A stretch of DNA of 64,000 bases from a virus, in IMG/VR virus record IMGVR_UViG_3300034108_000811, positions 5,660 through 69,659 of that record. One strand, given 5' to 3'. Below are positions 8,844-64,000 of the stretch, piece by piece (the first letter of the stretch is position 1; each line of letters begins with the position of its first letter). The notes beneath the pieces were generated by a model. The model saw only the letters and a program-made list of their open reading frames with translations. It searched no databases and had not been told where the DNA came from. The position numbers and the translations under genes are program-made.

Positions 8844-9041
8844 AAACTTTATGGAGATTTAAAACTCTGAGAATTGCTGGAAACTCTGACCACATAATGG
8901 TGAAGACAATCAGCAGCCGAGCCTAGAAATAGGAAGGTTCAACGACTAGTCGAAAGACGTACACTCAAGTGAGTGGAAGCACAGAGCCCCTGAAAAGGGT
9001 GATGATATAGTCTGAACAATATAGAAATATATTGATGAAAA

Positions 9042-9088: not shown

Positions 9089-9544
9089 ATGAGAATAAAT
9101 CGAGAAGGTTATAAAATATCTGAGACAGAACGAGAATGTACTAATTGTGGTACAATGTTCTTAAAAACCTCAAAAACAGTAACTCTTTGTAATAAGTGTA
9201 ATTCAGAACGAGTAAAGTGTACAGATCCTGAATCAAAAATGTTACAACGAGCAAAAGGTCGAGCTAAACTAAAAGGTTTAGAATTTGATTTAACTGTAAA
9301 AGATATTATTATACCAAAATATTGCCCAATTCTAGGTTTAGAATTGATTTGCAAAACAGGAGTTTCAGGAGGACAAAATAATTCTCCAGCATTAGATAGA
9401 ATAGATTCAAAAGGGGGCTATACTAAAACTAATGTAAGAGTTATTAGTCACTTAGCAAACATGATGAAAAGTTGTGCTAGTAATTCTGAAATGATAAAAT
9501 TTGCAGATTGGGTTAATAAAAATATTCCAAAGGATTCTGATTAA
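9089..9544 (+). CDS. Intron-encoded HNH-family homing endonuclease
   Basis: Zn finger CTNC..CNKC; CPILG...PALDRIDSKGGYTKTNVRVISHLANMMK; lies 3' of the intron core. Confidence 0.85.
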   Translation: MRINREGYKISETERECTNCGTMFLKTSKTVTLCNKCNSERVKCTDPESKMLQRAKGRAKLKGLEFDLTVKDIIIPKYCPILGLELICKTGVSGGQNNSPALDRIDSKGGYTKTNVRVISHLANMMKSCASNSEMIKFADWVNKNIPKDSD

Positions 9545-9571: not shown

Positions 9572-10482
9572 GTGAGGTGAATGTAAGCAATGTAACTAGT
9601 CAGGAAGACTTGAACAATCGTGTTTCTGTTGCTGCATTCTTTGGAACATTGCAGGCTGGATTTACAGATTTTCATTATCTGCGTCCTATTTGGCAGAAAA
9701 CTACACAAAAAGATGCTCTCTTAGGAATAGGAATGACAGGTATTGCTAGTGGGGAGGTGTTAAAATACAACCTTCAAGCAGCTGCAAATGTTGCTAAACT
9801 AACCAATTCATTAGTTAGTGAGATGACAGGTATTAATGAAGCAGCTCGTATTACATGTATTAAGCCTAGTGGTACAACATCTTTGGTGTTAGGTACAGCT
9901 AGTGGTATACATGCTTGGCATGCTCCTTTCTATCTACGTACAATGCGCTTTGGAAAGAATGAAGACATTGCTAGCTATCTAATGGTTAATCATCCAGAAC
10001 TAGTTGAAGATGACCAACTTAGACCAAAGGACACAATATGTGTACGCATTCCTGTTAAAGCTCCTGAAGGTTCTATATATAGAACAGAGACAGCTATTGA
10101 CACCCTTGAGCGTGTTAAGAAGTTTTCTCAAGAATGGATTAAAGAAGGACATCTTAATGGAGACAATACACATAATGTAAGTGCTACAATTTCTATTGAT
10201 AAGGATAGAAAATATGATGCTTTATTTGGTGTAATTGATGAATGGGAAGTTGTAGGAGAATGGATGTGGGAGAATCGTGAGCATTACAACGGTTTGTCAG
10301 TGCTACCCTATTTTGGAGGAAATTACGTACAAGCACCTTTTGAGGACATTACAGAAGAAGAATACAATAAAAGAATAGCTACATTACATTCTGTTGATTT
10401 AACTCAAGTGAGAGAAATGGAAGATGTTGTTGATTTTGGCCAAGTGGCAGCTTGTGCAGGTGGTGCATGTGAAATTAGTTAA
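9572..10482 (+). CDS. nrdJ: Class II ribonucleotide reductase, exon 2
   Basis: LLGIGMTG, TCIKPSGTTS, HNVSATIS, YVQAPFEDIT, C-terminal ACAGGACEI redox pair. Confidence 0.93.
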
Positions 10483-13940: not shown

Positions 13941-14162
13941 ATGATAGTACAAACCATTCATGAAATCCTCAATCCATTTGATGTTGAGGTGAAAGAGCTA
14001 GGCTATGGTGTAGCTCTTTTTTTAATTGCTGGAAGTATACATAGTAATCCCCAGTTTATTATTAGATTTTATAAAACAGGAATTCTTCGTACAGTGGACC
14101 AAAACGATATTATAGTTTATGGTAATCCAACAGCAGGAGAATCTTTAATACCAAAACAATGA
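13941..14162 (+). CDS. Hypothetical protein, 73 aa
   Basis: Within the operon; ATGA overlap. Confidence 0.65.
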   Translation: MIVQTIHEILNPFDVEVKELGYGVALFLIAGSIHSNPQFIIRFYKTGILRTVDQNDIIVYGNPTAGESLIPKQ

Positions 14163-14740
14163 TATTAACAGAAATTGCCAATAAGAATGGCACAGATAAA
14201 GGAACAGAGCATTATGAAGCTCATGGGTATACAGATCATTATGAGAAATATATTCCTTCTACAGGAAACTACACTCTCTTAGAGATAGGTGTGTGGCATG
14301 GGGATAGCCTAAGGATGTGGAAGGAATACAATCCTGAAATGAATTTACATGGTGTGGACATTGATCCAAGAACGACAAATTATGTTTCTCCAGATGAATT
14401 TAATATACATATAGGAGACCAAACAGATGAGAAATTCTTAGAAGATGTTGTTAAGCTTACAGGTCCCCTTGATTTTGTTATAGATGATGGAAGCCATGTA
14501 GGAGAACATATTGTAAAAAGCTTTGAAATCCTATGGAAACATGTAAAGCCTGGAGGTTATTATTTCATTGAAGATTTGCATGCAGGACAAGCTGATGCAA
14601 TGAATACAAGTATAAAAATACTTGATATTATAGATGCTATGAAACCCCATCATGATCATGACTTAGTGTGGATAACTCCAAATATTATTTATACACGCTT
14701 TGCTGTAAACAATAAACTACTAATTTTAGAAAAACCATGA
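14159..14740 (+). CDS. Class I SAM-dependent methyltransferase (MycE-like sugar O-methyltransferase)
   Basis: GTDK, LLEIGV, GVDID, GDQ, VIDDGSH, PGGYYFIEDL. Confidence 0.85.
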   Translation: MILTEIANKNGTDKGTEHYEAHGYTDHYEKYIPSTGNYTLLEIGVWHGDSLRMWKEYNPEMNLHGVDIDPRTTNYVSPDEFNIHIGDQTDEKFLEDVVKLTGPLDFVIDDGSHVGEHIVKSFEILWKHVKPGGYYFIEDLHAGQADAMNTSIKILDIIDAMKPHHDHDLVWITPNIIYTRFAVNNKLLILEKP

Positions 14741-15393
14741 CCCCAATTCCTGTAATAATAAACAATAGAAACCTTCTAACATGGCCCAAAGCTATGGTAG
14801 AGAGAATAAAACAATTTAAGGGTGTGGGAGAGATTATTATTGTAGACAATGATTCATCCTACCCACCATTATTAGAATGGTATGCTACTAATCCTTGTAG
14901 AATAGAGAAGCTTGATAGGAATGTAGGAATGGCTGCTCCTTGGTTAGCAGGTGTAGTGGCTAGGCTTGGTGTAGCACATTATGTTGTAACAGACCCAGAT
15001 ATGGGGCTAGCAGAAACTCCATACGATGTTCTTCTTCATCTAAAGGAGAAAATGCAAGAGCTTAATCTAACAAAGATAGGACTAGGACTAGACTGGCAGA
15101 GAGTGGAGAGCAAATCTCCTTATTATCAAAGACTCCATGTATACGAGAAAGATAGATGGGAGAAATCACGCATGGTGGATGGTGTGGCACTAGATGTACA
15201 AATAGACACTACATTTGCTTTATACGCTATAGGAAACTATTTTATAGGAGGTGCGTCTACAACATTTCCATATGTAGCAAGACATCTTCCTTGGGAATTC
15301 TCTATAGAAGAAGCAAGAAACAATGAGGAATTTCTGTATTATATACAGAATGCCACATCAGCCTCTTCCTACAAAACAATTGTAACGCTGTAA
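14737..15393 (+). CDS. GT2-like glycosyltransferase
   Basis: IIIVDNDSSYPPLL, YVVTDPD (DxD), IDTTFALY, ARHLPW. Confidence 0.78.
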   Translation: MTPIPVIINNRNLLTWPKAMVERIKQFKGVGEIIIVDNDSSYPPLLEWYATNPCRIEKLDRNVGMAAPWLAGVVARLGVAHYVVTDPDMGLAETPYDVLLHLKEKMQELNLTKIGLGLDWQRVESKSPYYQRLHVYEKDRWEKSRMVDGVALDVQIDTTFALYAIGNYFIGGASTTFPYVARHLPWEFSIEEARNNEEFLYYIQNATSASSYKTIVTL

Positions 15394-15650: not shown

Positions 15651-15863
15651 TTAACAACCCTTTTTCATCATTCCACCCTTTTTCATCATAGATGCACCGT
15701 AATTAGCTTTCTTTGTACCTTTAGGTACCATAGAAGCAGCTTTACCACCCATTTTCATTTTTGTACCAGATTTAGCAATAACACCACGACCTTTTAATAT
15801 ATCAGCCTTAGTTACTTTACCATCCTTGTTTAAGTCAGGAAAACTTTTTTTCATTTTTGCCAT
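15651..15863 (-). CDS. Small basic protein with an EF-hand/dockerin-like loop
   Basis: DLNKDGKVTKAD followed by repeated MKxGG-like units. Confidence 0.75.
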   Translation of the reverse strand: MAKMKKSFPDLNKDGKVTKADILKGRGVIAKSGTKMKMGGKAASMVPKGTKKANYGASMMKKGGMMKKGC

Positions 15864-15875
15864 GATTATTTAGAT

Positions 15876-16499
15876 TTAGATTTTAATATGTTTCCAAGTT
15901 TTACCTCTATGAATATCTTTTATAGAGTAATAACTCAGTTCAAGTTTATCTGCTACTTGTTTAGGAAGACAACCACTTGCCAATTGTTTTTTAATTTCAA
16001 CTACTTGTTCATCTGTAAGCTTAGCCATTTTATGACTAGAACCAGCTTTCCAATTTTTTGATAAGTTCTCTAGATGTTTGTTCCTATAAGTTTCATCTTT
16101 CCAGTTTTCTTTTTGAGAAACTGACTTTTTGAGTTTAACTTCTTCAGTTCTCTTTATTCCAAGGTTACTACCAGCAATCTTGGCTACATTATAATGTGGC
16201 TTTAGATTGTCAATATACTCTTGTTCTGTTTTAAGAATCTCCTCAGTAGGACACTCACAAATAATCTCAAACCTAAAGTTATCCTCTCCATGCTTATTCA
16301 CTGCTCTGATTAACTTTACACATGTATTTTTACCAGAACGTATGTCGTGGATGTGAGTGTAATACCTTTTTATCAGATTATTTGTACTTCCTATGTAGAA
16401 CTTATCATCAACATCATTAGTAATTTTGTAAATAACTCCTCCTTTTTGCTTCTCGGAGAAGTATTTCTGTTTACTTTCATTACTAATGGCTAATATCAT
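15876..16499 (-). CDS. Free-standing GIY-YIG homing endonuclease
   Basis: VIYKIT...FYIGS...R, EQEYID...YN; C-terminal AKLT..QV..I...GKTWKHI helix-turn-helix. Confidence 0.9.
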   Translation of the reverse strand: MILAISNESKQKYFSEKQKGGVIYKITNDVDDKFYIGSTNNLIKRYYTHIHDIRSGKNTCVKLIRAVNKHGEDNFRFEIICECPTEEILKTEQEYIDNLKPHYNVAKIAGSNLGIKRTEEVKLKKSVSQKENWKDETYRNKHLENLSKNWKAGSSHKMAKLTDEQVVEIKKQLASGCLPKQVADKLELSYYSIKDIHRGKTWKHIKI

Positions 16500-16663
16500 T
16501 TTTCTTTAGCTTTAATCTTTCTCTCCTGAGTTAACATAGCTTTTGTAGGGGCTTTAGATTTAGCACCAGTTTTTTTATTCTGGGCTGCTTTGCTCCTCAA
16601 ATTATCCCACAATCCACGTTGTGATGTAGAACCATCTTTACGTTTTAACATTTGTTTTGCCAT
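16496..16663 (-). CDS. Small Lys-rich protein, 55 aa (not in ORF track)
   Basis: MAKQMLKRKDGSTSQRGLWDNLRSKAAQNKKTGAKSKAPTKAMLTQERKIKAKEK*; ATGA overlap with the GIY-YIG gene. Confidence 0.75.
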   Translation of the reverse strand: MAKQMLKRKDGSTSQRGLWDNLRSKAAQNKKTGAKSKAPTKAMLTQERKIKAKEK

Positions 16664-16675
16664 AATATTAAGTTT

Positions 16676-17005
16676 TTAACACTTCCACTTTCTCAAACTC
16701 TTATTAATTCTGCTGTTAGGGTCATTAGCAGTTTTTGCACTTGTAAGCTTTTTCTTCATACCTGACATCCTAGCACAAAATGATTTCTTTCTAGGACCAC
16801 CCTCAGGTTGAGGAGCTTTAAGACCAGGCTTTCCTGGATTGGCTTTGTTATAAGAAGCTCTACCCTTAGCATTAAGTCCTCCAGAAGGATTCTTTCCTTC
16901 CTTTCTTTGCCATGCAGGTGTAGTGCCACCATTCTTTAATGATGTACCATCTTTTTTAATAAGAGGACCATTAGGAACACGTGTAGGTTTCTTAATAGTA
17001 GCCAT
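16676..17005 (-). CDS. Basic phage protein (DUF6321-like)
   Basis: AWQRKEGKNPSGGLNAKGRAS...RKKSFCARMSG...SRINKSLRKWKC. Confidence 0.75.
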   Translation of the reverse strand: MATIKKPTRVPNGPLIKKDGTSLKNGGTTPAWQRKEGKNPSGGLNAKGRASYNKANPGKPGLKAPQPEGGPRKKSFCARMSGMKKKLTSAKTANDPNSRINKSLRKWKC

Positions 17006-17007
17006 TG

Positions 17008-17157
17008 TTATTTCTTTTTAGCAGCTATTTTCTTAAAAGTTTTTGCTAACGCTTTAGCTTTACCAGTGCATCCAGGCTTTGTGATAGGCGTACATTTACC
17101 TTCTGTTCCTCTTTTCTTAATAGAGGCTGTAGCTTTTTGTATCCATTTCTCTGCCAT
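17008..17157 (-). CDS. Small Lys-rich protein, 49 aa (not in ORF track)
   Basis: MAEKWIQKATASIKKRGTEGKCTPITKPGCTGKAKALAKTFKKIAAKKK*. Confidence 0.75.
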   Translation of the reverse strand: MAEKWIQKATASIKKRGTEGKCTPITKPGCTGKAKALAKTFKKIAAKKK

Positions 17158-17161
17158 GATG

Positions 17162-17293
17162 TTATTTCTTTTTAGAGCCAGTCTTCTTACCAGCTATTGT
17201 ACGTTGTTGCACCTTTGTAAATGCACCTTTAGGATCTACCATAGGAGCTTTTGTTTTCTTAGTGAGAACACCTCCTGCTTGAGCTTTTTTCAT
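17162..17293 (-). CDS. Small Lys-rich protein, 43 aa (start revised from 17395)
   Basis: MKKAQAGGVLTKK...GSKKK*; the longer call overlaps the upstream gene. Confidence 0.7.
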   Translation of the reverse strand: MKKAQAGGVLTKKTKAPMVDPKGAFTKVQQRTIAGKKTGSKKK

Positions 17294-17303
17294 GTTTAAT
17301 GTT

Positions 17304-17546
17304 TTATTTAACCACTGATAAATTATTGAATGGTTCTGCTTCTTTAACAACATCAGCTTCAACAGCTTTAGCCATAACATTTTCAATTGCATCATTAGCT
17401 CTACTAGCTAAAAGAATTGTAGAGGCTTCTTGTGTGTTAAGAACAGAGCGAAGCGTGTTTAGAATTAATCCAAATTCGTGTCCTGTAATTTCAAATTTGT
17501 CATCAGGACTCCATGTATACTTTTTTGATGGGTCATACGTTGCCAT
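17304..17546 (-). CDS. Hypothetical protein, 80 aa
   Basis: Preceded by TACATTTG (- strand, 17573-17580). Confidence 0.75.
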   Translation of the reverse strand: MATYDPSKKYTWSPDDKFEITGHEFGLILNTLRSVLNTQEASTILLASRANDAIENVMAKAVEADVVKEAEPFNNLSVVK

Positions 17547-17591: not shown

Positions 17592-17879
17592 TCAAATATC
17601 AAAATCTAATTCAAATGTTATTGTTGCTGAACTTTTTATAGACTTACTTAAGCTTAGCTTTATTTGGAAAATGTTATGTAGTTTTAATATCTCCTCCAGA
17701 AGCATGTCTGTATACATAGGAACTGATGGAGCTAGTCTAAAATGATAGGAACGTGGGTTCTTTGTTATCTCCAATGCACAAAGTTCATCCACTGATTCTA
17801 TAACTGCCTGAAGATGATTGAAATATATCACCTCATTATCTGGCATCACCTCAGGAAAAAACTTCTTATTTACTGTCAT
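17592..17879 (-). CDS. Hypothetical protein, 95 aa
   Basis: TAATG overlap with the upstream gene. Confidence 0.7.
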   Translation of the reverse strand: MTVNKKFFPEVMPDNEVIYFNHLQAVIESVDELCALEITKNPRSYHFRLAPSVPMYTDMLLEEILKLHNIFQIKLSLSKSIKSSATITFELDFDI

Positions 17880-18295
17880 TAACTCAGAGTTAATAAATAT
17901 TTTGCTTTTGCAGCTTCTCCAGATAGAGACTGGGCAATGTTCTCAATATCAGGCATTCCATTGGAGGAAGCATATGATTGTAGTTGAGTGGAGAATGCAA
18001 GTAAATTACCCACTACTGTATTAGGAACTCCTGAGGCGTAATTAATGAGCATTTCATGCTTTACAGCCATTGGTCTTTTTCCTGAATACCCCATCATTTT
18101 TTCTACAATCTCATCTTTGAAATCAAACACTTTGTCATACAAACCACCAAGAGCTTGGTGTTCTGCATAACTAGTTGTCTGCCAATGCAATAGATGCAAT
18201 TGGTCAACAAAGTGTGTTAGCTTTGATGCAACTAAATCTAAGCTTAGCTCTCCTCCTGAAGAGCTAAGCATATCCTCTGGAAATAAAGATTTCAT
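17879..18295 (-). CDS. Ferritin/Dps-like four-helix protein (DUF5856-like); start revised to MKSLFPED
   Basis: LHLLHWQTTSYAEHQALGGLYD...DEIVE...KYLLTLS. Confidence 0.8.
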   Translation of the reverse strand: MKSLFPEDMLSSSGGELSLDLVASKLTHFVDQLHLLHWQTTSYAEHQALGGLYDKVFDFKDEIVEKMMGYSGKRPMAVKHEMLINYASGVPNTVVGNLLAFSTQLQSYASSNGMPDIENIAQSLSGEAAKAKYLLTLS

Positions 18296-18462
18296 TAGGT
18301 GGTTGTTGTAGTGGTGGTGGTATAATTGCAGCATTCATAGCCTTGAATTTCCATCCACTTACCTACCTTGGGCATGTTCTTTCTCAGAATAAGGCTTCCA
18401 GCTACAATTCTTCCACTTCCATCGAAGCGAACATAAGCTTTTAAAGGACGAGCGTTTGACAT
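18295..18462 (-). CDS. 55-aa protein ending in a poly-Thr tail (not in ORF track)
   Basis: MSNARPLKAYVRFDGSGRIVAGSLILRKNMPKVGKWMEIQGYECCNYTTTTTTTT*; TAATG coupling to the next gene. Confidence 0.75.
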   Translation of the reverse strand: MSNARPLKAYVRFDGSGRIVAGSLILRKNMPKVGKWMEIQGYECCNYTTTTTTTT

Positions 18463-18472
18463 TTTTTAATAA

Positions 18473-19507
18473 TTAATAGGTTAGATTATATTTAATAGAT
18501 AGGTCTTTTAACTTTTGTGCGTAATATCCTGTACACATTTTCTTAGACCTTTCATCGTTTAAAACATCGTTTAAATGTGGGTCTTGCGTAGGGTCTTGTC
18601 CTGTATGGTATTTACCCTTATAGAACATTTTGATAGGAGGTTGATCTCCACCTGCTGGCATTTCAGTTCCTACAGCTCCTGCATTATGAAGGATGGGGTG
18701 GTCTTTAAGTTTCTCTATTGGATCAGGAGCCCAAGAAAACCCCATTTCAGGAACTATCTTAATCTCTTTTTCTCTTAGTACAAGATTCCATAGAACAGCC
18801 CACATATCTGCACACCAACTTTGAAATCCTCTGTCTTCACTTTCAAAAAACTCCTTGTTTATCTTCAACAAGTAGTTTCTAATAACTATACAGTCTGTAA
18901 TCACCTTGTTCCAGAAAGCAGCATCAATGTTCTTTAATAGATATTGAGCCCCTCCAGAATCACTGTTTATTGCTGTTAGTTGTTCTCTAGATACACCTAC
19001 AACACTTGCTATTTCAGCAAGCACGTCTCTAGTTTTGTATTCTTCTAGTTTCTCAGGAAGAACATCTCTCTCCTTACTATCAAAATAATCAACGTTTATG
19101 TAGCTTAATGTATCAGACAAATAGCACACATCATCATCTATAAACTTTTGAACATCAAAATGTTCCATAAAAAGAACATCTGAATCACAATAGAATATTG
19201 CTTTATTTGCTAATTCTGGATGTGCCTTCCAATGTCTCCAAAGAGTGTATGGTCTAAGAACAGGAATATAGATTCCTAACAAAGAACTAATCTTATCTTC
19301 ATCCTTGTAGAAATGGAATTCAGCTTCTGGATAGAGGTCTATCACTTGCTGCCATTTTGGATTCTTTTCTCTGTAATTAGGAATAAATATAAGCACAATT
19401 GCTTTATCACTCTCTCCTCTGTTCTTTAAGCTTTCAAGCCATAGATGCACTTGCCATGTGTAATACGTGTCATCTGGTTGTACGCAGACATACTTAAAAT
19501 CCTTCAT
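18473..19507 (-). CDS. GT-A glycosyltransferase resembling plant peptide O-glycosyltransferases (HPAT GT95 / SERGT GT96)
   Basis: YYTWQ..LWLES, RPY, YCDSD (DxD), GGAQYLL, WCADMWAVLW, ILHNAG. Confidence 0.6.
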   Translation of the reverse strand: MKDFKYVCVQPDDTYYTWQVHLWLESLKNRGESDKAIVLIFIPNYREKNPKWQQVIDLYPEAEFHFYKDEDKISSLLGIYIPVLRPYTLWRHWKAHPELANKAIFYCDSDVLFMEHFDVQKFIDDDVCYLSDTLSYINVDYFDSKERDVLPEKLEEYKTRDVLAEIASVVGVSREQLTAINSDSGGAQYLLKNIDAAFWNKVITDCIVIRNYLLKINKEFFESEDRGFQSWCADMWAVLWNLVLREKEIKIVPEMGFSWAPDPIEKLKDHPILHNAGAVGTEMPAGGDQPPIKMFYKGKYHTGQDPTQDPHLNDVLNDERSKKMCTGYYAQKLKDLSIKYNLTY

Positions 19508-19538
19508 ATATGTAATTATTGGTTTATAATTTGAGCTT

Positions 19539-20216
19539 TTATGCTCCTCTGAATCCTGTCACTGTTAAATATACAACACCACTAGTTGTTGATGTAGGTA
19601 TTAAAAAGTTAAGATTTGCATCAGGTGCACTTCTCAACGGTGTAGGGAACTCAATGCTTTGAGGAGTAGTAATTGCTGTAGTTGCAAGCCTTAATCTAAA
19701 CAACACTCTATAACTATTAGCAGCTGTGGCTGCAACAGATGGTGCAAGATTTGAACCAAATATAGAAGCAGAGATGTTATATGTTGTTGGAGAACTAACG
19801 TCAGTTACGTAATAAAGAGTGTTTGTTGTAAGACCTGTACCTCCAGTGAGAGTGTTATAAATAACAGTGTCTCCCACCTTCAAGTCATGAGGAGTGGTGG
19901 TGGTTACAAGTCCTGTACCTGTAGCAATAGAAGATACAGACAAAAGTCCATCTAAAATAAGTAAGAACCCAGCTGCTCCAAGTGTATCTGTACTTAATAT
20001 AACAGAGGAAACATAGTTTCTAAGACCATTATTTTGTGATTTTGGAACAAGTCCTTGAACTGTCACCACTGTACCAGCAGACTGTACCACTGTTGAATAA
20101 GCTGTATCTTTTGCAGGATTTGAATAAGCTATTGAAGAAAGTCTTTCAACAGCCTTAGCTACATACCATGTGTTTGTAGCTTCAACACTCTGTCCTATTT
20201 GTCTATTTGGTATCAT
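19539..20216 (-). CDS. Putative virion structural protein, Thr/Ser-rich beta domain
   Basis: TTTPHDLKVGDTV...GLTTNTLYYV module typical of phage tail proteins; own promoter TATATTTG (- strand, 20237-20244). Confidence 0.6.
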   Translation of the reverse strand: MIPNRQIGQSVEATNTWYVAKAVERLSSIAYSNPAKDTAYSTVVQSAGTVVTVQGLVPKSQNNGLRNYVSSVILSTDTLGAAGFLLILDGLLSVSSIATGTGLVTTTTPHDLKVGDTVIYNTLTGGTGLTTNTLYYVTDVSSPTTYNISASIFGSNLAPSVAATAANSYRVLFRLRLATTAITTPQSIEFPTPLRSAPDANLNFLIPTSTTSGVVYLTVTGFRGA

Positions 20217-22175: not shown

Positions 22176-22223
22176 CAAATTTATAATTTAATTTTGAAAC
22201 TACCAAATATTTATTTAACTTTG
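22176..22223. promoter_or_regulatory. Divergent Bacteroidota-type promoters
   Basis: - strand TAAATTTG (22176-22183) toward lysis genes; + strand TTTG 22193-22196 and TAACTTTG 22216-22223 toward GT4. Confidence 0.65.
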
Positions 22224-22229
22224 TTCATT

Positions 22230-23147
22230 ATGAAAATACTCTACGTAGCTCCACATTTATCTACAGGAGGCATGCCTCAATACCTGTATAAGCAAATTAG
22301 TTATTTCTGTAAAGAACATCAAATTGAAGTGGTGGATTACACCAATTCAGGAGGTGATGCATTTGTTGTACAGAAGAACAGAATCAAAGAGCTTGTACCT
22401 GTACACAACCATATTCTTATGGAAGTGTATGAAAGAATGGCTCCTGATGTAATTCATTTTCAGGAGATTCCTGAAACATTTCTTCCTTCAGATGTTCTAG
22501 AAGTTCTATTTTCTATAGATAGAAAGCATTTTAACATTGTTACACCACATAGTTCAACTGTTAACCCAGACACTATTTCCTACCATCCAGACAAATATGT
22601 ATTTGTTTGTAAGTGGAGCCAGGATAGGTTTGCCCATTTAGCTGTAGATAGTGATGTGTGGACCTATCCCACAAAACTCCATATATATGATAAAGCTAAG
22701 GCTAAAGCAGCTGTAGGCTTTCGTGAGGGAAGTAAACATGTCCTTCATGTAGGACTATTTACACCAGGAAAAGATCAAGCAGAGCTGTTTGAAATAGCTA
22801 GAAAGGTGGTTGGTCTTCCTATTCAGTTCCATTTTGTAGGTAATCAGGCTAGTAATTTTGAGCACTATTGGGGCCCATTAATGGAAAACAAGCCTTCTAA
22901 TTGTATTGTTTGGGGAGAAAGAGATGATGTAGACACCTTCTACAAAGCTGCAGACTTGTTCTATTTTCCTTCTAAATATGAGCTATACCCCCTGTCTTTG
23001 CTAGAGGCTCTGAGCTACAATCTTCCCTGCATGTTTAGAAAGCTTCCTTCTTATTTAGATGACTTTGATAAAATGGAAAATGTCACATATATTACAGAAA
23101 ACGTGACAGAAAACAAATCTCTTCTTCTTAAAACCCTTCAATTATGA
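22230..23147 (+). CDS. GT-B (GT4) glycosyltransferase; start revised to MKILYV
   Basis: PHLSTGGMPQ, HVGLFTPGKDQ, ADLFYFPSKYELYPLSLLEALS. Confidence 0.9.
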   Translation: MKILYVAPHLSTGGMPQYLYKQISYFCKEHQIEVVDYTNSGGDAFVVQKNRIKELVPVHNHILMEVYERMAPDVIHFQEIPETFLPSDVLEVLFSIDRKHFNIVTPHSSTVNPDTISYHPDKYVFVCKWSQDRFAHLAVDSDVWTYPTKLHIYDKAKAKAAVGFREGSKHVLHVGLFTPGKDQAELFEIARKVVGLPIQFHFVGNQASNFEHYWGPLMENKPSNCIVWGERDDVDTFYKAADLFYFPSKYELYPLSLLEALSYNLPCMFRKLPSYLDDFDKMENVTYITENVTENKSLLLKTLQL

Positions 23148-24259
23148 GCATTTACAACAACCTTGTAAAAAACCAATCTGCAGTTAATAACCGTGTAGAA
23201 ATCATTTGTCACTTTGTAGATGGACCTTATTTAGAAATCCTATCTCCTATATCTGCTACATATGTTGTAAAATTCATAGATGTAGATAAGAACCTAGTGG
23301 TGTATGAAACTACCATTAATAATAACAACTGGTCAAAAGCTTCCACCAAATACTTTGTTAATTGGAAGATAGAAGTGTACCAGAACAATAAACTTATATA
23401 TGAACATGCATATAATGCTGCTGGTAAGAATGTTTACATCTCCATAGAAAGTTCTTCTTTGGGAGATGGTCTTGCCTGGATGCCTTATATTGAAGAATTT
23501 CAGAAAATACATCAATGTAATGTAATTGTTAGCACTTATTTAAACCATCTGTTTGAGAACGAATACAAATCAATAAAGTTTGTAAATCCAGGAGATGTAG
23601 TGGAAAACTTATACGCTATGTATAAAATAGGGTATTTTTACAATCCAGAAATGGAACCTGTTCTTCCTCATACAATTCCTCTTCAGAAACAAGCTTGTAA
23701 CATATTAGGTATTATTTATAATGAGGTTAGACCAAGAATAACCCATGTTCCTAAAAATGTATATGATTTAGATAAAACTATAACAATAGCTACAGAATCA
23801 ACAGCTGGATGTAAACTTTGGACAAATGAGGGATGGCAAGAGCTTATTAATTTTCTTAATCAACAAGGATATACAGTGATTAATGTCTCCAAAGATGGAT
23901 TTCCTTATGAAGGATGTACAGTGATACCATTTGACCCAACGCTTCAAGCTCCTATGGATGCAATAGCAAGTAGCAAATTGTTTATTGGACTTGCTTCAGG
24001 AATGAGTTGGCTAGCTTGGGCTCTATTTGCGCCTGTTGCAATAATATCAAACTTCTCAGAAGAAGGACATGAGTTTTTCTCAGAGATTCGTATTACAAAT
24101 ACAGATGTTTGTCATGGATGCTGGAACAGTCACCGCTTTAAATTTGACAAAGCAGATTGGAATTGGTGTCCTGTTAACAAAGGAACAGACAGACAATTTG
24201 AATGTCAGTCTTCTATAAGCAGCCAAATGGTTATTAATCAAATACAAAGATATATATGA
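23144..24259 (+). CDS. Autotransporter O-heptosyltransferase-like protein (TibC/AAH, GT9-related)
   Basis: FVDGPYLEI and KYFVNWKIEV N-terminal domain, SLGDGLAW, KLW...W, FIGLASGMSWLAWAL, Cys cluster CHGCWN...WCP...FEC. Confidence 0.85.
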   Translation: MSIYNNLVKNQSAVNNRVEIICHFVDGPYLEILSPISATYVVKFIDVDKNLVVYETTINNNNWSKASTKYFVNWKIEVYQNNKLIYEHAYNAAGKNVYISIESSSLGDGLAWMPYIEEFQKIHQCNVIVSTYLNHLFENEYKSIKFVNPGDVVENLYAMYKIGYFYNPEMEPVLPHTIPLQKQACNILGIIYNEVRPRITHVPKNVYDLDKTITIATESTAGCKLWTNEGWQELINFLNQQGYTVINVSKDGFPYEGCTVIPFDPTLQAPMDAIASSKLFIGLASGMSWLAWALFAPVAIISNFSEEGHEFFSEIRITNTDVCHGCWNSHRFKFDKADWNWCPVNKGTDRQFECQSSISSQMVINQIQRYI

Positions 24260-24939
24260 ACATAGACAATTTCATATGGGAACCAATCTGCTATCCAGGC
24301 TTTAAAGAAACTGTTATAAAAGAAATCTTTGATGATAGGTTGTACGAAACCTTCTTTCTAGTTGAAGAAGGTGATGTAGTTTTTGATATTGGAGCCAGCC
24401 TTGGACCATTTACATATTCTATTCTACCTAGAAAACCTAAACATGTATTTGCTCTTGAGCCAAGCTATGAGGAATTTAAAACCCTTGTTCTTAATACACG
24501 TCATGGAAATGTTACACACATCAACAAGGGAATATCAGACTTTGTAGGTGAAATGCATTTCCAATATGCCTTTGATAAAACACATAAAATGTATGCCACC
24601 ACCTTTAAAACTATTATAGAGCAATATGGAATTCAGAAAATAGATTTTCTTAAGACAGATTGCGAAGGTGGGGAGTATGATGTGTTTAACATTGACAATC
24701 TATTATGGATTAAGAACAATGTTAGAAAGATTGTAGGAGAATGGCACCTAGGAGAACAATGGATGAAGAGCAAGTTTAAAGCTTTCAGAGATGTCTACCT
24801 AAGAGTTTTTCCTAATTATAGAATCTTGTCTGTGGATGGAGTGGAAATCACCTCTCAGTTGTGGAGTGATGATTTTATTTCTCATTATACAGAAGTGATT
24901 ATATTTATTGATAATACAGTTATTTCCACGTCCCACTAA
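24256..24939 (+). CDS. FkbM-family methyltransferase
   Basis: VFDIGASLGPF, ALEP, IDFLKTDCEGGEY, IVGEWH. Confidence 0.88.
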   Translation: MNIDNFIWEPICYPGFKETVIKEIFDDRLYETFFLVEEGDVVFDIGASLGPFTYSILPRKPKHVFALEPSYEEFKTLVLNTRHGNVTHINKGISDFVGEMHFQYAFDKTHKMYATTFKTIIEQYGIQKIDFLKTDCEGGEYDVFNIDNLLWIKNNVRKIVGEWHLGEQWMKSKFKAFRDVYLRVFPNYRILSVDGVEITSQLWSDDFISHYTEVIIFIDNTVISTSH

Positions 24940-59753: not shown

Positions 59754-62700
59754 TTATGAACCACAAGAAACACAAGAACCTGTTGCTGTCATAGAGGAAC
59801 CTGGTCCAAAAGGTTTTTGGAATTGTCTCACATTTATACCGTCAGATATGTAATAAGTTCCATCAACTAAACCATTAATGTTTGCACCACTTATTGATGT
59901 ACATCCACATAAAGTTTGTGTACCAGTGTAAACATATGTTGGTAGAGATGTTCCTCCTGTACTAGTACATGAATTTCCACTTGTTGACGCTATATAGAGA
60001 GATGGTGTAACTGTTGTGGTTGTAGTGGTGGTTGGTGGTACAGTGGTGGTAGATGTTGTTGTTGCAGGAAGTGCACAAGGTCCCAATGGTTCTAAATCTC
60101 CATATACAGAAAGTGTTTCAGGAGGGTTGGCTGTTCTCATACAAACTTGAGCTCCTTCGCCAATTGTACCACCAGGTTGATAGGTGCCATTACACATCGT
60201 ATAATTACCCATCCACTCAAATCCTGTATTATTTATCCATTCTGTGCAATAACTTGTAGTGGTTGTGGTGGTGGTGGAAGATGTGGATGTTGTAGTTGAC
60301 GTAGAACTGCTAGTGGTAGTGGTTGTTACATTACAAGAATTAATTGAAATTATAACACCATTTAACACTCTGAACACTGTATTTGCTGCTTGACTTTCTC
60401 CTGTGAAATACCAGCCATCAGGAGCAGGGGTACAATCTGTTCTTAAACTAGAAGCATATACATAAGACCCAATGAACACTCCTTGATAATACACAATATT
60501 GTATGTAGGAATTACATTTGTGTAAGGAAGTGGTAGAGAGTTTAAATAGCTTACAGCACTACATGCAGCAGAAGAGCTTCCTGTAGATACCACTGTTGAT
60601 GCTGGAGAGAGAATGTCATATCCTGTAAAGAATGCTTCAGGAACTAGTCCTCCAGCTTTAGGACATAGAGTTGTTGTTGTAGTGGTTGTACTAGAGGTGG
60701 AGGTGGAAGTGGTTGATGTGGTGCTAGTGGACGTACTGGTTGTTGTAGAAGTGGACGTACTAGTGGTGCTAGTGGAAGATGTACTTGATGTAGTTGTGGT
60801 GGTAGGAATAGGTCCAAGAACACCAACCAAAGCATCAAATTCATCACAACACCCATTAACTCCTGAATAGAAGAAATTGTTCTCTCCTATATACCAATTA
60901 GGCAGATAGCTGTGAAAACTAACCCAGCTCTTTGTGTTAAAATTGAAAGACAATGTCCAGCCCTTATTACAGAAATATTGTTCATCTGTTAAATAGACAA
61001 CTTGACGTTGTGTAACAGGGAACATTGTAGTGGTGGATGTTGTAGATGTGTTAGATGTAGTTGTAGATGTGGTGGTTAATGGAATTGAAGTGGTGGTGGA
61101 TGTGGTTGTTGTAGGTCTAGGTTGTTGATTTACAATGGTTTCTATGTAAAACTCATTCTTTTTAGCATCGTATTTAATTCCCTTGTTTAATGGAACATAA
61201 TCAAGCTTTGTTATTAATATTCTATCATACCTACTATCATAAACACCATGTAAGCCAATTCCATTGAAATGGTTATCAACAGGAACATCTGGAAAATAAC
61301 GTAGGATTTCAAAGGCTAAATGGTCTGTAAAAAACCTATTAAGTCCTGAACCAAAAGCTGAAAGGTCTGTAGCTTGTGTACCACTAATTAGAAACACTTG
61401 TCCTCTTTTAGCATCTATTGTCACCTGTCCCTGAGGAATCTTTAATAACATCTTATTTTGAGTTCCTACATATCCAAGATCTGTTTCAGCAAAATCTATA
61501 GGAGGAGCTCCTCTAAACATCATAGGGTTTCCTATATAAGCAGCTTGAGGATTACTTGTGTCAATTGTTAACAAGTTGTTGTACATCAACGTCTTATTCT
61601 CAAAACGAGCAAGAACAGCCCTATTCTGTATACCATCTAAAGATGTAAGATTTCCATAATTCTGAGGGAAGTCATAATAAGAAATAGCTCTATATATCAG
61701 CCAACTGTTCACTCTGTTATCAGAATCTATATTCTGTGCATCAGAATAAATAGCTCTGAAGGGATAATAAGTGTAACAAGGTTTATCCCAATCTATGGGT
61801 AGGTTGGTGAATGTGTTCTCTTTGTTTTGCTTAGAGAACGTTACATTGTAATAATAACTGTTGTCCTGAGCAATGGGAACAAATGTTTGTTGCACCCAAT
61901 CATCAGGAATACTTGTACTTACGTGAGGCCAAAAGTCTCCTTCTCTATTATTAAACGCCTGACGAAGATTTACATTATAAGAGCTCTCACAATAGAAGTT
62001 AGGTATTCCATAGGCAAACATATAGAAATACCCATCATAGAATGTTCTATTGGGATTGGAGCTAGCAGGTTGTCCTGGTGTTAATGTTTGACTATTAGGA
62101 CAATCAAAATTGTGAGCTTTGTATGAAATAACGTTAGAAAGAATAGGGGTGATACCACTTACAGAGTTTGTATTAAGCACTGTATAATCCTTCAGAATAG
62201 AACGTGCTGAGTGCCAGTATTTTGGATAGGCTATATTACCAATTTCATCATAGAATATGTCACTATCATCAGGAGCATCCACTCTGTTATCAATAAATAG
62301 AGGAAGCTTGGTTTTATAGGCAAATCTGCTTATAAATGTATCTCCTCCAAACACTGTAGCTGTAGAGGAATTTTCATTGAACAAATGCTGAAACCCTGTG
62401 TCCACTGTTTCATAAGAATAGATTTGTCCATATTGATTAATAAACACATTTTTTATAGAAGCGTAATAAGACACTACAGAAATATCTTTCTCTTTAGCTG
62501 GAGCTCCACAAAGACCTGCTTCTGATATAGTGAATCTTGATTTATCTGTTACAATAGGAATTGTTCCAGACAACATGTTAGGACTATTGTCTGCAAAAGG
62601 AAGGGTGGGTTTATCTAAATCTGTTCTTAGGAAGACAGAAGTTTCTCTTTGGTAGTTGTTGATATTATATGTATCTCCTACGTTTAATACACTTGGAATC

Positions 62701-64000
62701 AAATATCTAGCTATGTCAAGAGGTCTTTGTTTAACTCCTTGATTATCAGGCACTCCTACACCATAATTGTAATCAGCTATAGAGTTGAATGAATAAGCAT
62801 AGTTTTTTCTAGTGATGCCATTGATATAAATAGTTAAATAGGACTGATAGGCTGCAAACATTGCTGCAGCATTAAAGGGGCTAGTTATGCGTCCAATTGC
62901 TGCTGAGCTATCTAATGCATCTCTTTGCGCTTCTTCTGTAAGTAGTTTATATTTGGCGTTATTTCTCACCTCTACAAAGTGAGCACTTCCTTTCCCAAAC
63001 ATTACACTCTCAAGCTTAAGTACGTTCCCTAAGAATGGTTGTCCAAAGGATGTTTCTGGAGAGTTGAATATTTGTCTGTATTTGTCTGTAAATGCAGGCT
63101 GTGGAGTTTCTCCTTTACAGTTAGCACCAGTGACAGAAGGTTCTTTTGTAAAGTTCAAACATCCACCATCACCTTTTGTAGGAGAACTTCCTGGAACCAC
63201 CTTCACTGTTAGTATTGGACAGAGAGGCCATCCATCTATCCATACATTTGTTTTTATTCCTTCATATATATCATTATATGTAACATACGATCCAGCTGCA
63301 AAAGCAAAGAATCCTGGGTTACACACCTGAATTGAATATACATCATATGTAGAAAGTCCCACAAGTCCTGTAGCAGGACCAACAATAACAGGTTTTCCTA
63401 TAGCACATAGTTGATGGTCACCAAGAGTTGTATATCTGATGGTGCTTTGTTTGTTGGTGTTACAATCTGTATATTGTACATCTGCATATGTACCACCTGT
63501 TCCAAATGAGTTAATTGTTATTGTATATCCATCACAAAGCTGTGCAAAAGCATTGTTTCTTAAATTAAGGAATGGGTCTACACGAAGGTCATTATATGGA
63601 TAGTTAGGATAGTAGTAGGTTTGTAAATCTCTTTCGTAGGTGTTAACGTTTCTTAACATTCCTTTGGCAACAATAGACTTGTTTGTTCCTCTGTCTGCTC
63701 TTATTATTTTAAAGCCTACAATCTCATCTTTTTGTTCTTGTGTAAGACTAGAAGAGCCAATAATAGAAATAATTTGCTGTGTGTCCAATTGTACACCAAT
63801 AGGGAATACAGCATCATTTCCCATCACCATTCCTGTAGAGCTTGTAAATATCTTTGATTCGTATGCAGCACTAATGTTAATATCAGGAAACTTATGATGT
63901 CTTATTGGTTGACCAGATAGTTCACCCCATACATCAGTGTTACAAGGATAGGTTTCTGTTGATTCCCAATAAGCAAACTCACCATATTGATAAGGTCCTT
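59754..64000 (-). CDS. Tail stabilisation protein (crAss-type, P22 gp10-like), 5' end outside window, with Thr-rich tracts
   Basis: Frame is open to the window edge (YWESTETYP...PIRHHKFPD); FGGDTFISRF, GVYDSRYDRILITK, WTLSF..WVSFHSYLP. Confidence 0.8.
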   Translation of the reverse strand, partial: GPYQYGEFAYWESTETYPCNTDVWGELSGQPIRHHKFPDINISAAYESKIFTSSTGMVMGNDAVFPIGVQLDTQQIISIIGSSSLTQEQKDEIVGFKIIRADRGTNKSIVAKGMLRNVNTYERDLQTYYYPNYPYNDLRVDPFLNLRNNAFAQLCDGYTITINSFGTGGTYADVQYTDCNTNKQSTIRYTTLGDHQLCAIGKPVIVGPATGLVGLSTYDVYSIQVCNPGFFAFAAGSYVTYNDIYEGIKTNVWIDGWPLCPILTVKVVPGSSPTKGDGGCLNFTKEPSVTGANCKGETPQPAFTDKYRQIFNSPETSFGQPFLGNVLKLESVMFGKGSAHFVEVRNNAKYKLLTEEAQRDALDSSAAIGRITSPFNAAAMFAAYQSYLTIYINGITRKNYAYSFNSIADYNYGVGVPDNQGVKQRPLDIARYLIPSVLNVGDTYNINNYQRETSVFLRTDLDKPTLPFADNSPNMLSGTIPIVTDKSRFTISEAGLCGAPAKEKDISVVSYYASIKNVFINQYGQIYSYETVDTGFQHLFNENSSTATVFGGDTFISRFAYKTKLPLFIDNRVDAPDDSDIFYDEIGNIAYPKYWHSARSILKDYTVLNTNSVSGITPILSNVISYKAHNFDCPNSQTLTPGQPASSNPNRTFYDGYFYMFAYGIPNFYCESSYNVNLRQAFNNREGDFWPHVSTSIPDDWVQQTFVPIAQDNSYYYNVTFSKQNKENTFTNLPIDWDKPCYTYYPFRAIYSDAQNIDSDNRVNSWLIYRAISYYDFPQNYGNLTSLDGIQNRAVLARFENKTLMYNNLLTIDTSNPQAAYIGNPMMFRGAPPIDFAETDLGYVGTQNKMLLKIPQGQVTIDAKRGQVFLISGTQATDLSAFGSGLNRFFTDHLAFEILRYFPDVPVDNHFNGIGLHGVYDSRYDRILITKLDYVPLNKGIKYDAKKNEFYIETIVNQQPRPTTTTSTTTSIPLTTTSTTTSNTSTTSTTTMFPVTQRQVVYLTDEQYFCNKGWTLSFNFNTKSWVSFHSYLPNWYIGENNFFYSGVNGCCDEFDALVGVLGPIPTTTTTSSTSSTSTTSTSTSTTTSTSTSTTSTTSTSTSSTTTTTTTLCPKAGGLVPEAFFTGYDILSPASTVVSTGSSSAACSAVSYLNSLPLPYTNVIPTYNIVYYQGVFIGSYVYASSLRTDCTPAPDGWYFTGESQAANTVFRVLNGVIISINSCNVTTTTTSSSTSTTTSTSSTTTTTTTSYCTEWINNTGFEWMGNYTMCNGTYQPGGTIGEGAQVCMRTANPPETLSVYGDLEPLGPCALPATTTSTTTVPPTTTTTTTVTPSLYIASTSGNSCTSTGGTSLPTYVYTGTQTLCGCTSISGANINGLVDGTYYISDGINVRQFQKPFGPGSSMTATGSCVSCGS

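Follow-up and report, generated by a model that had tools for sequence, protein, structure and literature searches.

GT8-like phage glycosyltransferases and the threonine-tailed proteins encoded beside them: a candidate enzyme and acceptor pair

Introduction

Does a phage enzyme gene that lies next to a tiny gene for a threonine-tailed protein encode the transferase that places sugar on that tail? The question is raised by a 64,000-nucleotide stretch of viral DNA, here called the window, which covers positions 5,660 to 69,659 of the IMG/VR record IMGVR_UViG_3300034108_000811. On its minus strand, an open reading frame (ORF) of 344 amino acids (aa) is followed by one of 55 aa. The initial annotation, made from the letters of the sequence, took the first for a plant-type peptide O-glycosyltransferase of families GT95 or GT96 (GT, glycosyltransferase) and the two together for an enzyme and its substrate. 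The ORF pair is as described there. The 55-aa ORF ends in ECCNYTTTTTTTT, that is, ECCNY followed by eight threonines (Thr), and 10 bases (18463-18472) separate it from the enzyme gene. Runs of n threonines are written Tn below.

The 344-aa protein belongs to phrog_4417, a phage family with a predicted GT8-like fold and no membrane segment. On balance, members of this family probably O-glycosylate poly-Thr tags on phage proteins. The evidence comes from the fold of the enzyme, the conservation of the small gene, the clustering of Thr tracts around enzyme genes in lake and isolate phages, and a comparison of tail proteins with and without the enzyme.

Family and fold of the enzyme

The 344-aa protein contains YYTWQ (residues 15-19), DSD (108-110) and WCADMWA (231-237). 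The initial annotation had pointed to Y..WQ, DxD and W.ADMWA in this order, and all three are conserved in the family consensus as YFxWQ, FYxDSDIxF and GFQSWCADMWAxLWNLW. Both aspartates of the DxD, D108 and D110, are retained without exception across 54 sequences whose identity to the query is 31-78%. The other invariant residues are Y80, Y136, Q229, F257, H274 and K297.

The match to phrog_4417, a family of unknown function, is full-length (E 5.6e-57; residues 5-335 on profile positions 2-290 of 293). A Pfam scan of the protein returned no family at E≤0.1, Glyco_transf_8 included. The PDB gave no useful chain match, either by sequence (phmmer) or by a profile of 54 relatives. In a set of 5.8 billion proteins, 2662 of the 5127 candidates scored match at E≤0.001, and the family has 726 representatives at 50% identity. 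The 120 relatives listed are named only 'hypothetical protein' and have no Pfam domain. The domain is fused to others in 24 longer relatives, including Methyltransf_24 (2), Glycos_transf_2 (3, two of them weak), Glyco_transf_6 (1), Glyco_transf_7C (2) and radical-SAM/SPASM (1).

The AlphaFold2 model of the enzyme, built with 54 diverse relatives, has a pLDDT of 97.5 and a pTM of 0.94. The sequence has no hydrophobic N-terminal segment and, because the model is globular from residue 4, the enzyme is predicted to be soluble. D108-S-D110 sits between strands 103-106 and 111-113. The model was compared with 48,161 solved chains by VIA-align, and also by Foldseek, which returned the same families. 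In VIA-align, 92 chains reach a Z of at least 8, and the top 16 rows are all glycosyltransferases. The Z scores are 14.1 for the Skp1 alpha-galactosyltransferase (6mw8), 13.9 for LgtC (1g9r), 13.9 for glycogenin, 13.6 for the catalytic domain of UGGT, 13.3 for WbbM, 12.8 for GlyE (5gvv) and 12.2 for LARGE1. Alignments to the best matches overall cover 209-252 residues at 3.3-4.3 A. In the BFVD viral library, the enzyme's own family comes first (including LP65 Orf49), followed by giant-virus GT8-type proteins.

The modelled protein has the GT-A fold, with a Rossmann-like alpha/beta/alpha domain and a DxD after the central strand, and its nearest neighbours are the retaining GT8, GT24 and GT6 enzymes. 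It resembles GT8 in structure and goes unrecognized by the GT8 sequence profile (Pfam Glyco_transf_8). From the fold, the conserved DxD and the fusions, the protein is taken to be a nucleotide-sugar-dependent transferase. DNA glucosylation as in phage T4 was set aside, the enzyme being GT-A and its gene company protein-linked; the T4 DNA glucosyltransferases are GT-B.

Relationship to GT95 and GT96

GT95 is made up of the hydroxyproline O-arabinosyltransferases (HPATs), represented in Pfam by the HPAT profile (PF23452; cut-off 23.9 bits). Plant-type membership of the window protein is not supported. The HPAT profile gives no match to it at E≤0.1, and the protein has no membrane anchor. Among its relatives, HPAT is the sole recurrent Pfam signal, sub-threshold in 3 of 54 (best E 0.012), and it matched none of 85 further, more distant relatives at E≤0.01. 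The HPAT and DUF7164 profiles, searched against the phage record alone, also gave no match, and the controls in that search were silent too. The Atlas contains one related cluster with HPAT on 10% of its members and one DUF7164 cluster; both are leads only.

HPATs are described as GT8-related in a passage of PMC4908140 and are filed under GT8 in a passage of PMC4738400. A table in PMC4908140 gives the plant HPATs as Golgi and endoplasmic reticulum (ER) membrane proteins. A Golgi membrane protein that acts on hydroxyproline (Hyp) is not what is found here, since the model is globular from residue 4 and the nearby Thr runs have no Pro/Hyp motif. It is very improbable that the family is a true member of GT95 (HPAT) or GT96 (SGT1), acquired by or common to phages. 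The conserved order of the motifs, the sub-threshold HPAT signals, the Atlas cluster and the GT8-like fold would suit such a membership, but the silence of the profile on the window protein and 85 relatives, the missing anchor and the nature of the nearby acceptors, which are Thr runs and not Hyp or Ser-Hyp4, all speak against it.

Because the fold is GT8-like and HPATs are described as GT8-related, the resemblance probably reflects shared GT8-like ancestry, and a link at the level of the superfamily may be real. The initial annotation had also named an outcome that would tell against it, a best match to an unrelated GT family with non-peptide acceptors. The outcome is mixed: the best matches are GT8 and GT24 enzymes, several of which act on glycoproteins, but mostly on the sugars of these. 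We know of no solved structure for GT96 SGT1.

The small threonine-tailed protein

Of 80 related IMG/VR loci, 75 carry the small ORF downstream of the enzyme (tblastn, E≤1e-8). Its 140 copies are distributed as one in 23 loci, two in 39 and three in 13. The ratio of nonsynonymous to synonymous substitution rates (dN/dS) has a median of 0.10 over 677 pairs and is below 0.5 in every pair. This calculation used residues 5-46 of 58 distinct sequences (the window and the best copies of 67 ungapped full-match loci) at a dS of 0.05-2. Across 46 aligned copies, C44, C45 and 15 further positions never vary, and contigs from two further lake-water studies cover the whole ORF without a single difference. 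Homologues are called as hypothetical proteins in public gene sets. Because it recurs in 75 of 80 loci with a dN/dS of about 0.10, the small ORF is a real gene under purifying selection, and its place beside the enzyme gene goes well beyond coincidence. The conservation and synteny that the initial annotation had made a test of the pair are thus present. Searches of the isolate-phage collection with the small ORF (tblastn) and with the region (blastn) found nothing.

Relatives of the small protein number 957 at 30-97 aa and 524 at 98 aa or more. In the longer ones, the 45-residue module is N-terminal and is usually followed by a Thr run and then by another domain. Among the appended domains are an ice-binding-like one (PF11999), PF07603, leucine-rich repeats and peptidase S74, a chaperone characteristic of the ends of fibres. 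Since relatives carry display domains on the same module, the module is most likely a docking piece of a virion appendage, on the particle or a fibre. The window copy, to judge by its sequence, is the minimal form, module plus tag. Its model has three short strands (pLDDT ~88) and a disordered tail (~52). Comparison of this model with the PDB gave no match at a Z of at least 2, which is uninformative on novelty for a domain of 45 residues. A complex prediction of the enzyme with the 55-aa protein scored 0.00 in two runs made without control runs, which bears on the pairing in neither direction.

One relative, P0382 (133 aa), has the module and T7 directly followed by a peptidase S74 intramolecular chaperone domain. 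The peptidase S74 domain cleaves itself off trimeric fibres. Self-cleavage of P0382 would leave a product much like the short protein of the window, which hints that the module is trimeric.

A second anchor type occupies the slot upstream of the enzyme in related loci. Its members are proteins of 44-58 aa with a helix module (MAIPSRQIGW..LLWQISKQLE.L) and a Thr run. The 225-aa ORF of the window matches one of them (L037:3466-3816) at 38% identity over residues 2-41 (E 9e-08, a single BLASTP comparison). The 225-aa protein continues into another domain and has no Thr tail (one run of four threonines). Its full-length homologue was found only in the closest locus, L001, and it has no Pfam or PHROG match.

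Cysteines are a conspicuous feature of the small proteins. The pair C44/C45 is invariant in the 46 copies, and cysteines often precede the Thr run in other small families. The acceptor could then be the Cys-Cys ahead of the run, with S-glycosylation as in glycocins, or the small proteins could be ribosomal peptide precursors composed of a leader and a modified core. The enzyme relative fused to radical-SAM/SPASM, a domain typical of peptide maturases, would agree with this, but it is one of 24 fused forms. Moreover, no Cys is found near the run in the tail and capsid proteins of the isolate phages phiFL1A, 1706, iLp84 and bIL285 or in many proteins of the upstream helix-module type (family B), and the feature common to all lineages is the Thr run. 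A role for the cysteines as acceptors, or for the small proteins as such precursors, is the least probable of the explanations considered here; the Thr run is preferred.

Threonine runs as a protein feature

Run length is tightly distributed. In 128 distinct Thr-tailed proteins, 130 of 222 runs of at least four Thr are exactly seven residues long and 38 are exactly eight. The units are joined by short spacers, e.g., VAP (17) and AAP (9). Thr codons in the relatives are mixed (ACA 605, ACT 539, ACC 326, ACG 27), and the T8 of the window, its codons likewise mixed, does not stem from simple repetition at the DNA level. The idea that the Thr run is a slippery or repetitive DNA element was ruled out by the mixed codons together with selection at the protein level. 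Judged by its codons and lengths, the run is quantised and selected as protein.

The window encodes a further protein with such runs. In the C-terminal part of the 1358-aa structural protein, three Ser/Thr linkers each close with a run that is exactly T7 (residues 1048-1054, 1186-1192 and 1267-1273), and T5 runs occur as well. This protein is a second candidate acceptor, encoded 40 kb from the enzyme gene.

Threonine tracts cluster around the enzyme gene

All of the Thr-tailed ORFs found in the first 80 loci (148/148) lie on the enzyme strand. In the counts that follow, a strict tract is any stretch with 6 or more Thr among 7 residues. A further 79 loci came with as much as 8 kb of flank. Their same-strand density is 0.94 and 1.22 tracts per kb on the two sides of the enzyme gene, within the nearest kb. 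It falls to 0.15 and 0.09 per kb in the second kb and to 0.05 or less beyond 2 kb, a drop of about 20-fold. A single tract was found on the opposite strand. A tract is present within 1 kb of the enzyme gene in 73 of the 79 loci. These loci belong to one phage group and therefore represent conserved synteny and no independent events.

Isolate phages provide a wider sample. Enzyme homologues that are 22-35% identical occur in 77 isolate-phage records (tblastn), from phages of Lactobacillus, Enterococcus, Staphylococcus, Lactococcus, Clostridium, Arcanobacterium and Chryseobacterium. From these records, 16 lineages were hand-picked as distinct. A strict tract lies within 2.1 kb of the homologue in 11 of the 16 by ORF count and in 12 by six-frame count. 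With the remainder judged by eye, all 16 have a Thr-rich tail on a capsid, tail or small protein near the homologue. The tract density is 0.357 per kb within 2.1 kb and 0.033 per kb further out, for a binomial tail of 2.7e-08 if the lineages are independent.

The tailed proteins are often major components of the particle. Homologues adjoin Thr-tailed major tail, capsid or major structural proteins in phiFL1A, 1706, iLp84, R9.1, RQ1, TPWB06 and bIL285. In phiFL1A, the enzyme gene is abutted by that of the major tail protein, whose C-terminus reads ..T5ST6SST7QASSK, and a 331-aa protein of the head block ends in T7QG. In 1706, T9-10HHD ends both the major structural protein and the capsid/protease; the enzyme homologue is orf14 in this phage and orf45 in bIL285. 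The capsid and tail proteins of iLp84 and R9.1 have a T7-9 run near the C-terminus, with SK or SHV as the last residues. The enzyme gene of iLp84, like that of Bacchae, is abutted by small ORFs with 40-52% Ser+Thr. MA9V-3 has internal tracts in two upstream proteins.

The lineages judged by eye have looser Thr-rich tails. The protein adjacent to the enzyme carries VTTTTIAPTTTTSTSQV in FA88 and TTVAP/TTVKP repeats in ENFP1 and SAC12B. LP65 has TTTETQTQTQ repeats, one of them on a protein annotated as structural by two-dimensional gel and mass spectrometry, and TJE4 has TTTDPVTTTSTT on a protein 1.7 kb off. In the Herelleviridae, the enzyme gene lies outside the structural block, among sigma-factor, holin and DNA-repair genes, and is still flanked by ORFs with Thr-rich tails. 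The pairing therefore follows the tails and not the module.

Two further features of the tails were observed. In Staphylococcus phage RQ1 (L170:7232-7934) and Arcanobacterium phage TPWB06 (L171:7161-7923), the major tail protein ends in T7-9, and an overlapping ORF in another frame has five to six T7 blocks. The overlap looks like a frameshift extension of the tail-tube protein that would add a long appendage of Thr blocks. In addition, non-homologous capsid and tail proteins within a phage share the residues that follow the Thr run: HHD in 1706, SK in iLp84, SHV in R9.1, and QG or QR in the Enterococcus phages phiFL1A and 1_EfsPF36. It looks as if the tag were copied as a cassette, or read together with its ending.

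The tail protein of phages with and without the enzyme

The major tail protein of bIL285 allows a paired comparison. In the two enzyme-bearing records that encode this type, it ends in ..T9RHD and ..T8RHD. Its 203 homologous records fall into two groups, 9 with at least 95% identity and 194 with less than 60%. For the 57 rows listed from the second group, the alignments end at residues 135-190, ahead of the Thr run. Five orthologues that are 45-56% identical come from complete genomes, those of phages of Ruminococcus, Exiguobacterium, Streptococcus (two) and Geobacillus. None of the five has a C-terminal Thr run, and a profile search for the enzyme was negative in all five genomes; the same profile found the enzyme elsewhere. 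In this small sample, the Thr tail appears to track the enzyme.

One half of the original proposal is supported and the other is not. At the level of comparative genomics, tract clustering, recurrence in unrelated phages and the tail-protein comparison favour an enzyme-substrate pair, but not under the label of GT95 or GT96.

Initiation or extension of the glycan

The genome of phiFL1A (38.8 kb, 61 coding sequences) was scanned for other transferases. None of 23 coding sequences scanned has a Pfam glycosyltransferase; the integrase, the tape measure and most coding sequences below ~139 aa were left out. With no other GT among these 23, gp51 is the only candidate phage GT beside two Thr-tailed proteins. 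This favours an initiating role for gp51, and a host enzyme could still start the glycan.

Alternatively, the enzyme may be an extender that acts on Thr-tract glycoproteins after a first sugar has been placed by another transferase, either one of the phage, such as the GT9/TibC-like or GT4-like protein (22194-24259), or a host enzyme. We regard this as unlikely. It has in its favour that the top structural matches mostly lengthen the sugars of glycoproteins or glycolipids (LgtC, UGGT, the Skp1 galactosyltransferase and GlyE, which acts on the PsrP glycan), that the window has other transferase-like genes (Glycos_transf_1, Glyco_transf_9 and a sub-threshold TibC_1st), and that relatives are fused to GT2, GT6 and GT7C, as multi-step glycan builders are. 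The phiFL1A scan points the other way, and it is this family, unlike the other transferases, that lies gene-to-gene beside Thr tails in the 16 sampled lineages.

The window and its gene neighbourhood

The source record is a 69.7-kb viral record with an estimated completeness of 61%. It derives from a lake-water phage that recurs across many lake metagenomes. The window has a G+C content of 35% and contains T4-like replication and recombination genes (rIIA/rIIB, UvsX and a split ribonucleotide reductase), followed by very large structural genes. On the minus strand, the 225-aa ORF, the 344-aa ORF, the 55-aa ORF and the DUF5856 gene are arranged head to tail (Table 1).

Table 1. Coordinates of the main features of the window.
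Feature	Positions	Strand	Remarks
344-aa GT-A glycosyltransferase-like protein	18473..19507	-	phrog_4417; predicted soluble; DxD D108/D110; no Pfam family
55-aa protein, candidate acceptor	18295..18462	-	45-residue N-terminal beta module (..LKAYVRFDGSGRIVAGSLILRK..PKVGKW.EI..ECC), NY, C-terminal T8
Eight Thr codons of the tail	18298..18321	-	ACC ACC ACC ACT ACA ACA ACC ACC
225-aa protein directly upstream of the enzyme gene	19539..20216	-	N-terminal helix module match
DUF5856 gene (Dps/ferritin-like by PHROG name)	17879..18295	-	Pfam PF19174 E 3.5e-13; phrog_858
1358-aa virion structural protein	59754..63830	-	phrog_37948 'virion structural protein' E 1.6e-79

The stop codon TAA of the 55-aa ORF overlaps the likely in-frame ATG of the DUF5856 gene as TAATG, and both are transcribed in the same direction. 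The DUF5856 reading frame extends to 18334 in the ORF list. The spacers ahead of the small ORF (18463-18472) and the enzyme gene (19508-19538) are A/T-rich and contain no purine run resembling a Shine-Dalgarno sequence. Such spacers would fit a Bacteroidota host, and the best isolate match is a Chryseobacterium phage. In two freshwater RNA libraries, contigs lie on the enzyme gene (18483-18633, 18569-18714, 18875-19025 and 18992-19219) and on the DUF5856 gene, and none lies on the small ORF; DNA may be present in such libraries, and an uncovered part proves nothing.

Further sugar-related genes are found on the plus strand. A GT4-like gene (22194-23147; Glycos_transf_1 E 1.2e-12) is followed by a GT9/TibC-like gene (23144-24259; Glyco_transf_9 E 7.7e-07, TibC_1st sub-threshold at E 4.2e-04) and a methyltransferase gene (24256-24939). 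TibC is a protein heptosyltransferase. A Methyltransf_24 gene is present at 14159-14740 (plus strand), and the same Pfam family is fused to the phrog_4417 domain in the relatives P0143 and P0165. A 218-aa ORF of no family lies at 14737-15393 on the same strand.

The ribonucleotide reductase is split into two plus-strand ORFs (7865-8845 and 9577-10482), which correspond to phrog_367 positions 34-401 and 417-696. Between the halves is an endonuclease ORF (9089-9544; phrog_3322), an arrangement that resembles insertion of a homing endonuclease or an intron. At 15651-17395 on the minus strand, a series of small lysine-rich ORFs (49-109 aa) surrounds a GIY-YIG homing endonuclease (15876-16499). The one of 109 aa resembles several PHROGs of unknown function over their C-terminal 80 residues (phrog_3477, E 1.7e-40). 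The very large ORFs at 30308-58876 (minus strand) encode 1762, 5027, 888, 1064 and 749 aa. A scan of all but the 5027-aa ORF gave no PHROG match at E≤1e-4.

Discussion

The reading preferred here is that a soluble, GT8-like phage enzyme glycosylates Thr tags. The enzyme would act during infection, in the host cytoplasm, and on a nucleotide sugar. A metal would be bound by D108 and D110, and probably also by H274. The sugar would be added to the hydroxyl groups of runs of about seven Thr, which would form a portable tag. In the window phage, the nearest tag would be the T8 tail of the 55-aa protein, and the T7 linkers of the 1358-aa structural protein would be further likely targets. We infer Thr as the acceptor, initiation of the glycan over extension, retaining chemistry, the donor sugar and the presence of the small protein on the particle.

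A broader proposal can be put forward tentatively, and we consider it rather less than an even prospect. The run of about seven Thr may be a portable, quantised tag read by one dedicated family of soluble enzymes. It would be added to capsid proteins, tail-tube proteins and fibre linkers and, in the group of lake phages, also to tiny anchor-plus-tag proteins that would serve solely to bring glycan to the particle. The result would be a modular, mucin-like sugar coat common to phages of Bacillota, Actinomycetota and Bacteroidota.

Several results weigh against Thr-tag glycosylation by this family. Six of the 79 metagenomic loci have no tract within 1 kb, four of the 16 isolate lineages miss the strict rule, and the relative P0370, which has leucine-rich repeats, carries the N-terminal module without a Thr run. 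The isolate lineages are related and synteny is heritable, so the binomial figure overstates their independence. Most of the closest structural matches (LgtC, the Skp1 galactosyltransferase, GlyE and UGGT) add sugar to sugar, and glycogenin alone acts on a protein side chain. The fold is therefore silent on whether Thr is where the glycan starts. A literature search found no paper on the phrog_4417-type family or on glycosylation of Thr runs in phages.

The converse scan belongs to the same side. IMG/VR was scanned for seven ACN codons, which gave at least 126 stretches, and 77 loci were examined. The enzyme lies within 10 kb of the T7 tract on 4 distinct contigs among these loci. In whole-record searches of 34 viral records of at least 15 kb with an in-frame T7, the enzyme was found in 5, and in records at least 90% complete it was found in 1 of 6. 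Since 5 of the 34 T7 records hold the enzyme, Thr runs are commoner than the enzyme. The tracts do not depend on the enzyme, but the enzyme seems to depend on the tracts.

Thr tracts that are common without the enzyme would also be expected if the acceptor were not a protein. Many phage GT-A enzymes alter host surface glycans, and LgtC (lipo-oligosaccharide) and WbbM (O-antigen) are among the top matches. The acceptor could be a host envelope polysaccharide, altered for serotype conversion or superinfection exclusion, or a precursor, with proximity to Thr tails a by-product of the gene's place in the structural block. Location does not explain the Herelleviridae, where the gene is outside the structural block and Thr-rich tails still flank it, nor the approximately 20-fold fall in tract density beyond 2 kb. 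In the phages compared, the Thr run on the tail protein was seen solely in those with the enzyme, and the modelled enzyme has no membrane segment. A non-protein acceptor is accordingly judged somewhat more doubtful than an extending role, and glycosylation of the Thr tags is retained as the preferred explanation.

If this explanation is correct, virion self-glycosylation would be widespread. The family is present in dairy phages of Lactococcus and Lactobacillus, in phages of Enterococcus and Staphylococcus, and in a lake-phage group that is abundant. A sugar coat on head and tail would bear on particle stability, adsorption, sticking to mucus and polysaccharide, and immune recognition in phage therapy. 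For the production of O-glycoproteins in bacteria, one soluble enzyme and its short Thr tag would make a simple tool. Whether enzyme and Thr tail belong together is open to direct test in harmless, cultivable systems, for example the Lactococcus phages 1706 and bIL285.

Comparison with known systems

The closest structural likeness is to GT8 enzymes. Glycogenin, LgtC, GlyE and the Skp1 enzyme align with the model at a Z of 12.8-14.1 over 218-236 residues (root-mean-square deviation 3.6-4.0 A), with the DxD between strands. The phage enzyme is predicted to be soluble and cytoplasmic, like glycogenin and the Skp1 enzyme. GlyE, which extends the glycan of a serine-rich repeat adhesin, is a close functional analogy. 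In contrast to these likenesses, there is no match at the level of sequence, identity in the structural alignments is 10-12%, and ~100 residues lie outside the aligned core.

GT95 and GT96 are composed of peptide-directed O-glycosyltransferases that act on repetitive hydroxy-amino-acid motifs, and weak HPAT signals occur in a few relatives of the phage enzyme. Those families are Golgi and ER membrane enzymes, whereas the phage enzyme appears soluble. Their acceptors are Hyp and the Ser in Ser-Hyp4, whereas Thr runs are the candidates here.

Serine-rich repeat glycoproteins and mucins carry dense O-glycosylation on long Ser/Thr repeats, made by cytoplasmic or Golgi enzymes of the GT-A or GT-B fold, and form a stiff, protease-resistant stalk. 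The phage proteins offer an analogy in their Thr-rich repeats, and GlyE (5gvv) is among the top matches of the enzyme. The systems differ in that glycosylation of the cellular adhesins and mucins starts with GtfA/B (GT-B) or GT27 enzymes, while the phage proteins have quantised T7 units and an enzyme of another family.

Glycosylated phage particles are, to our knowledge, documented mainly for a few mycobacteriophages. Freeman et al. reportedly described virion glycosylation of mycobacteriophages, Che8 and its relatives, in Cell Host Microbe in 2023. One review cites this study for 'extensive glycosylation' of virion proteins (PMC12582341), and in a genome note two putative glycosyltransferases are said to suggest capsid glycosylation (PMC11256854). 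The likeness to the present family lies in the phage-encoded glycosyltransferases and in capsid and tail-tube proteins as the glycosylated products, which are putative here. In both, a phage GT is linked to capsid or tail proteins with a C-terminal acceptor stretch, a candidate one in the present case. The mycobacteriophages differ in having hosts among the Actinobacteria. Their glycosylation enzymes are not known to belong to phrog_4417 and are apparently of other families, and we know of no homopolymeric T7 tag or small anchor-plus-tag carriers in that system. Compared with it, the phages described here would add an uncharacterised enzyme family, a quantised homopolymeric tag, dedicated carriers and a far wider host range.

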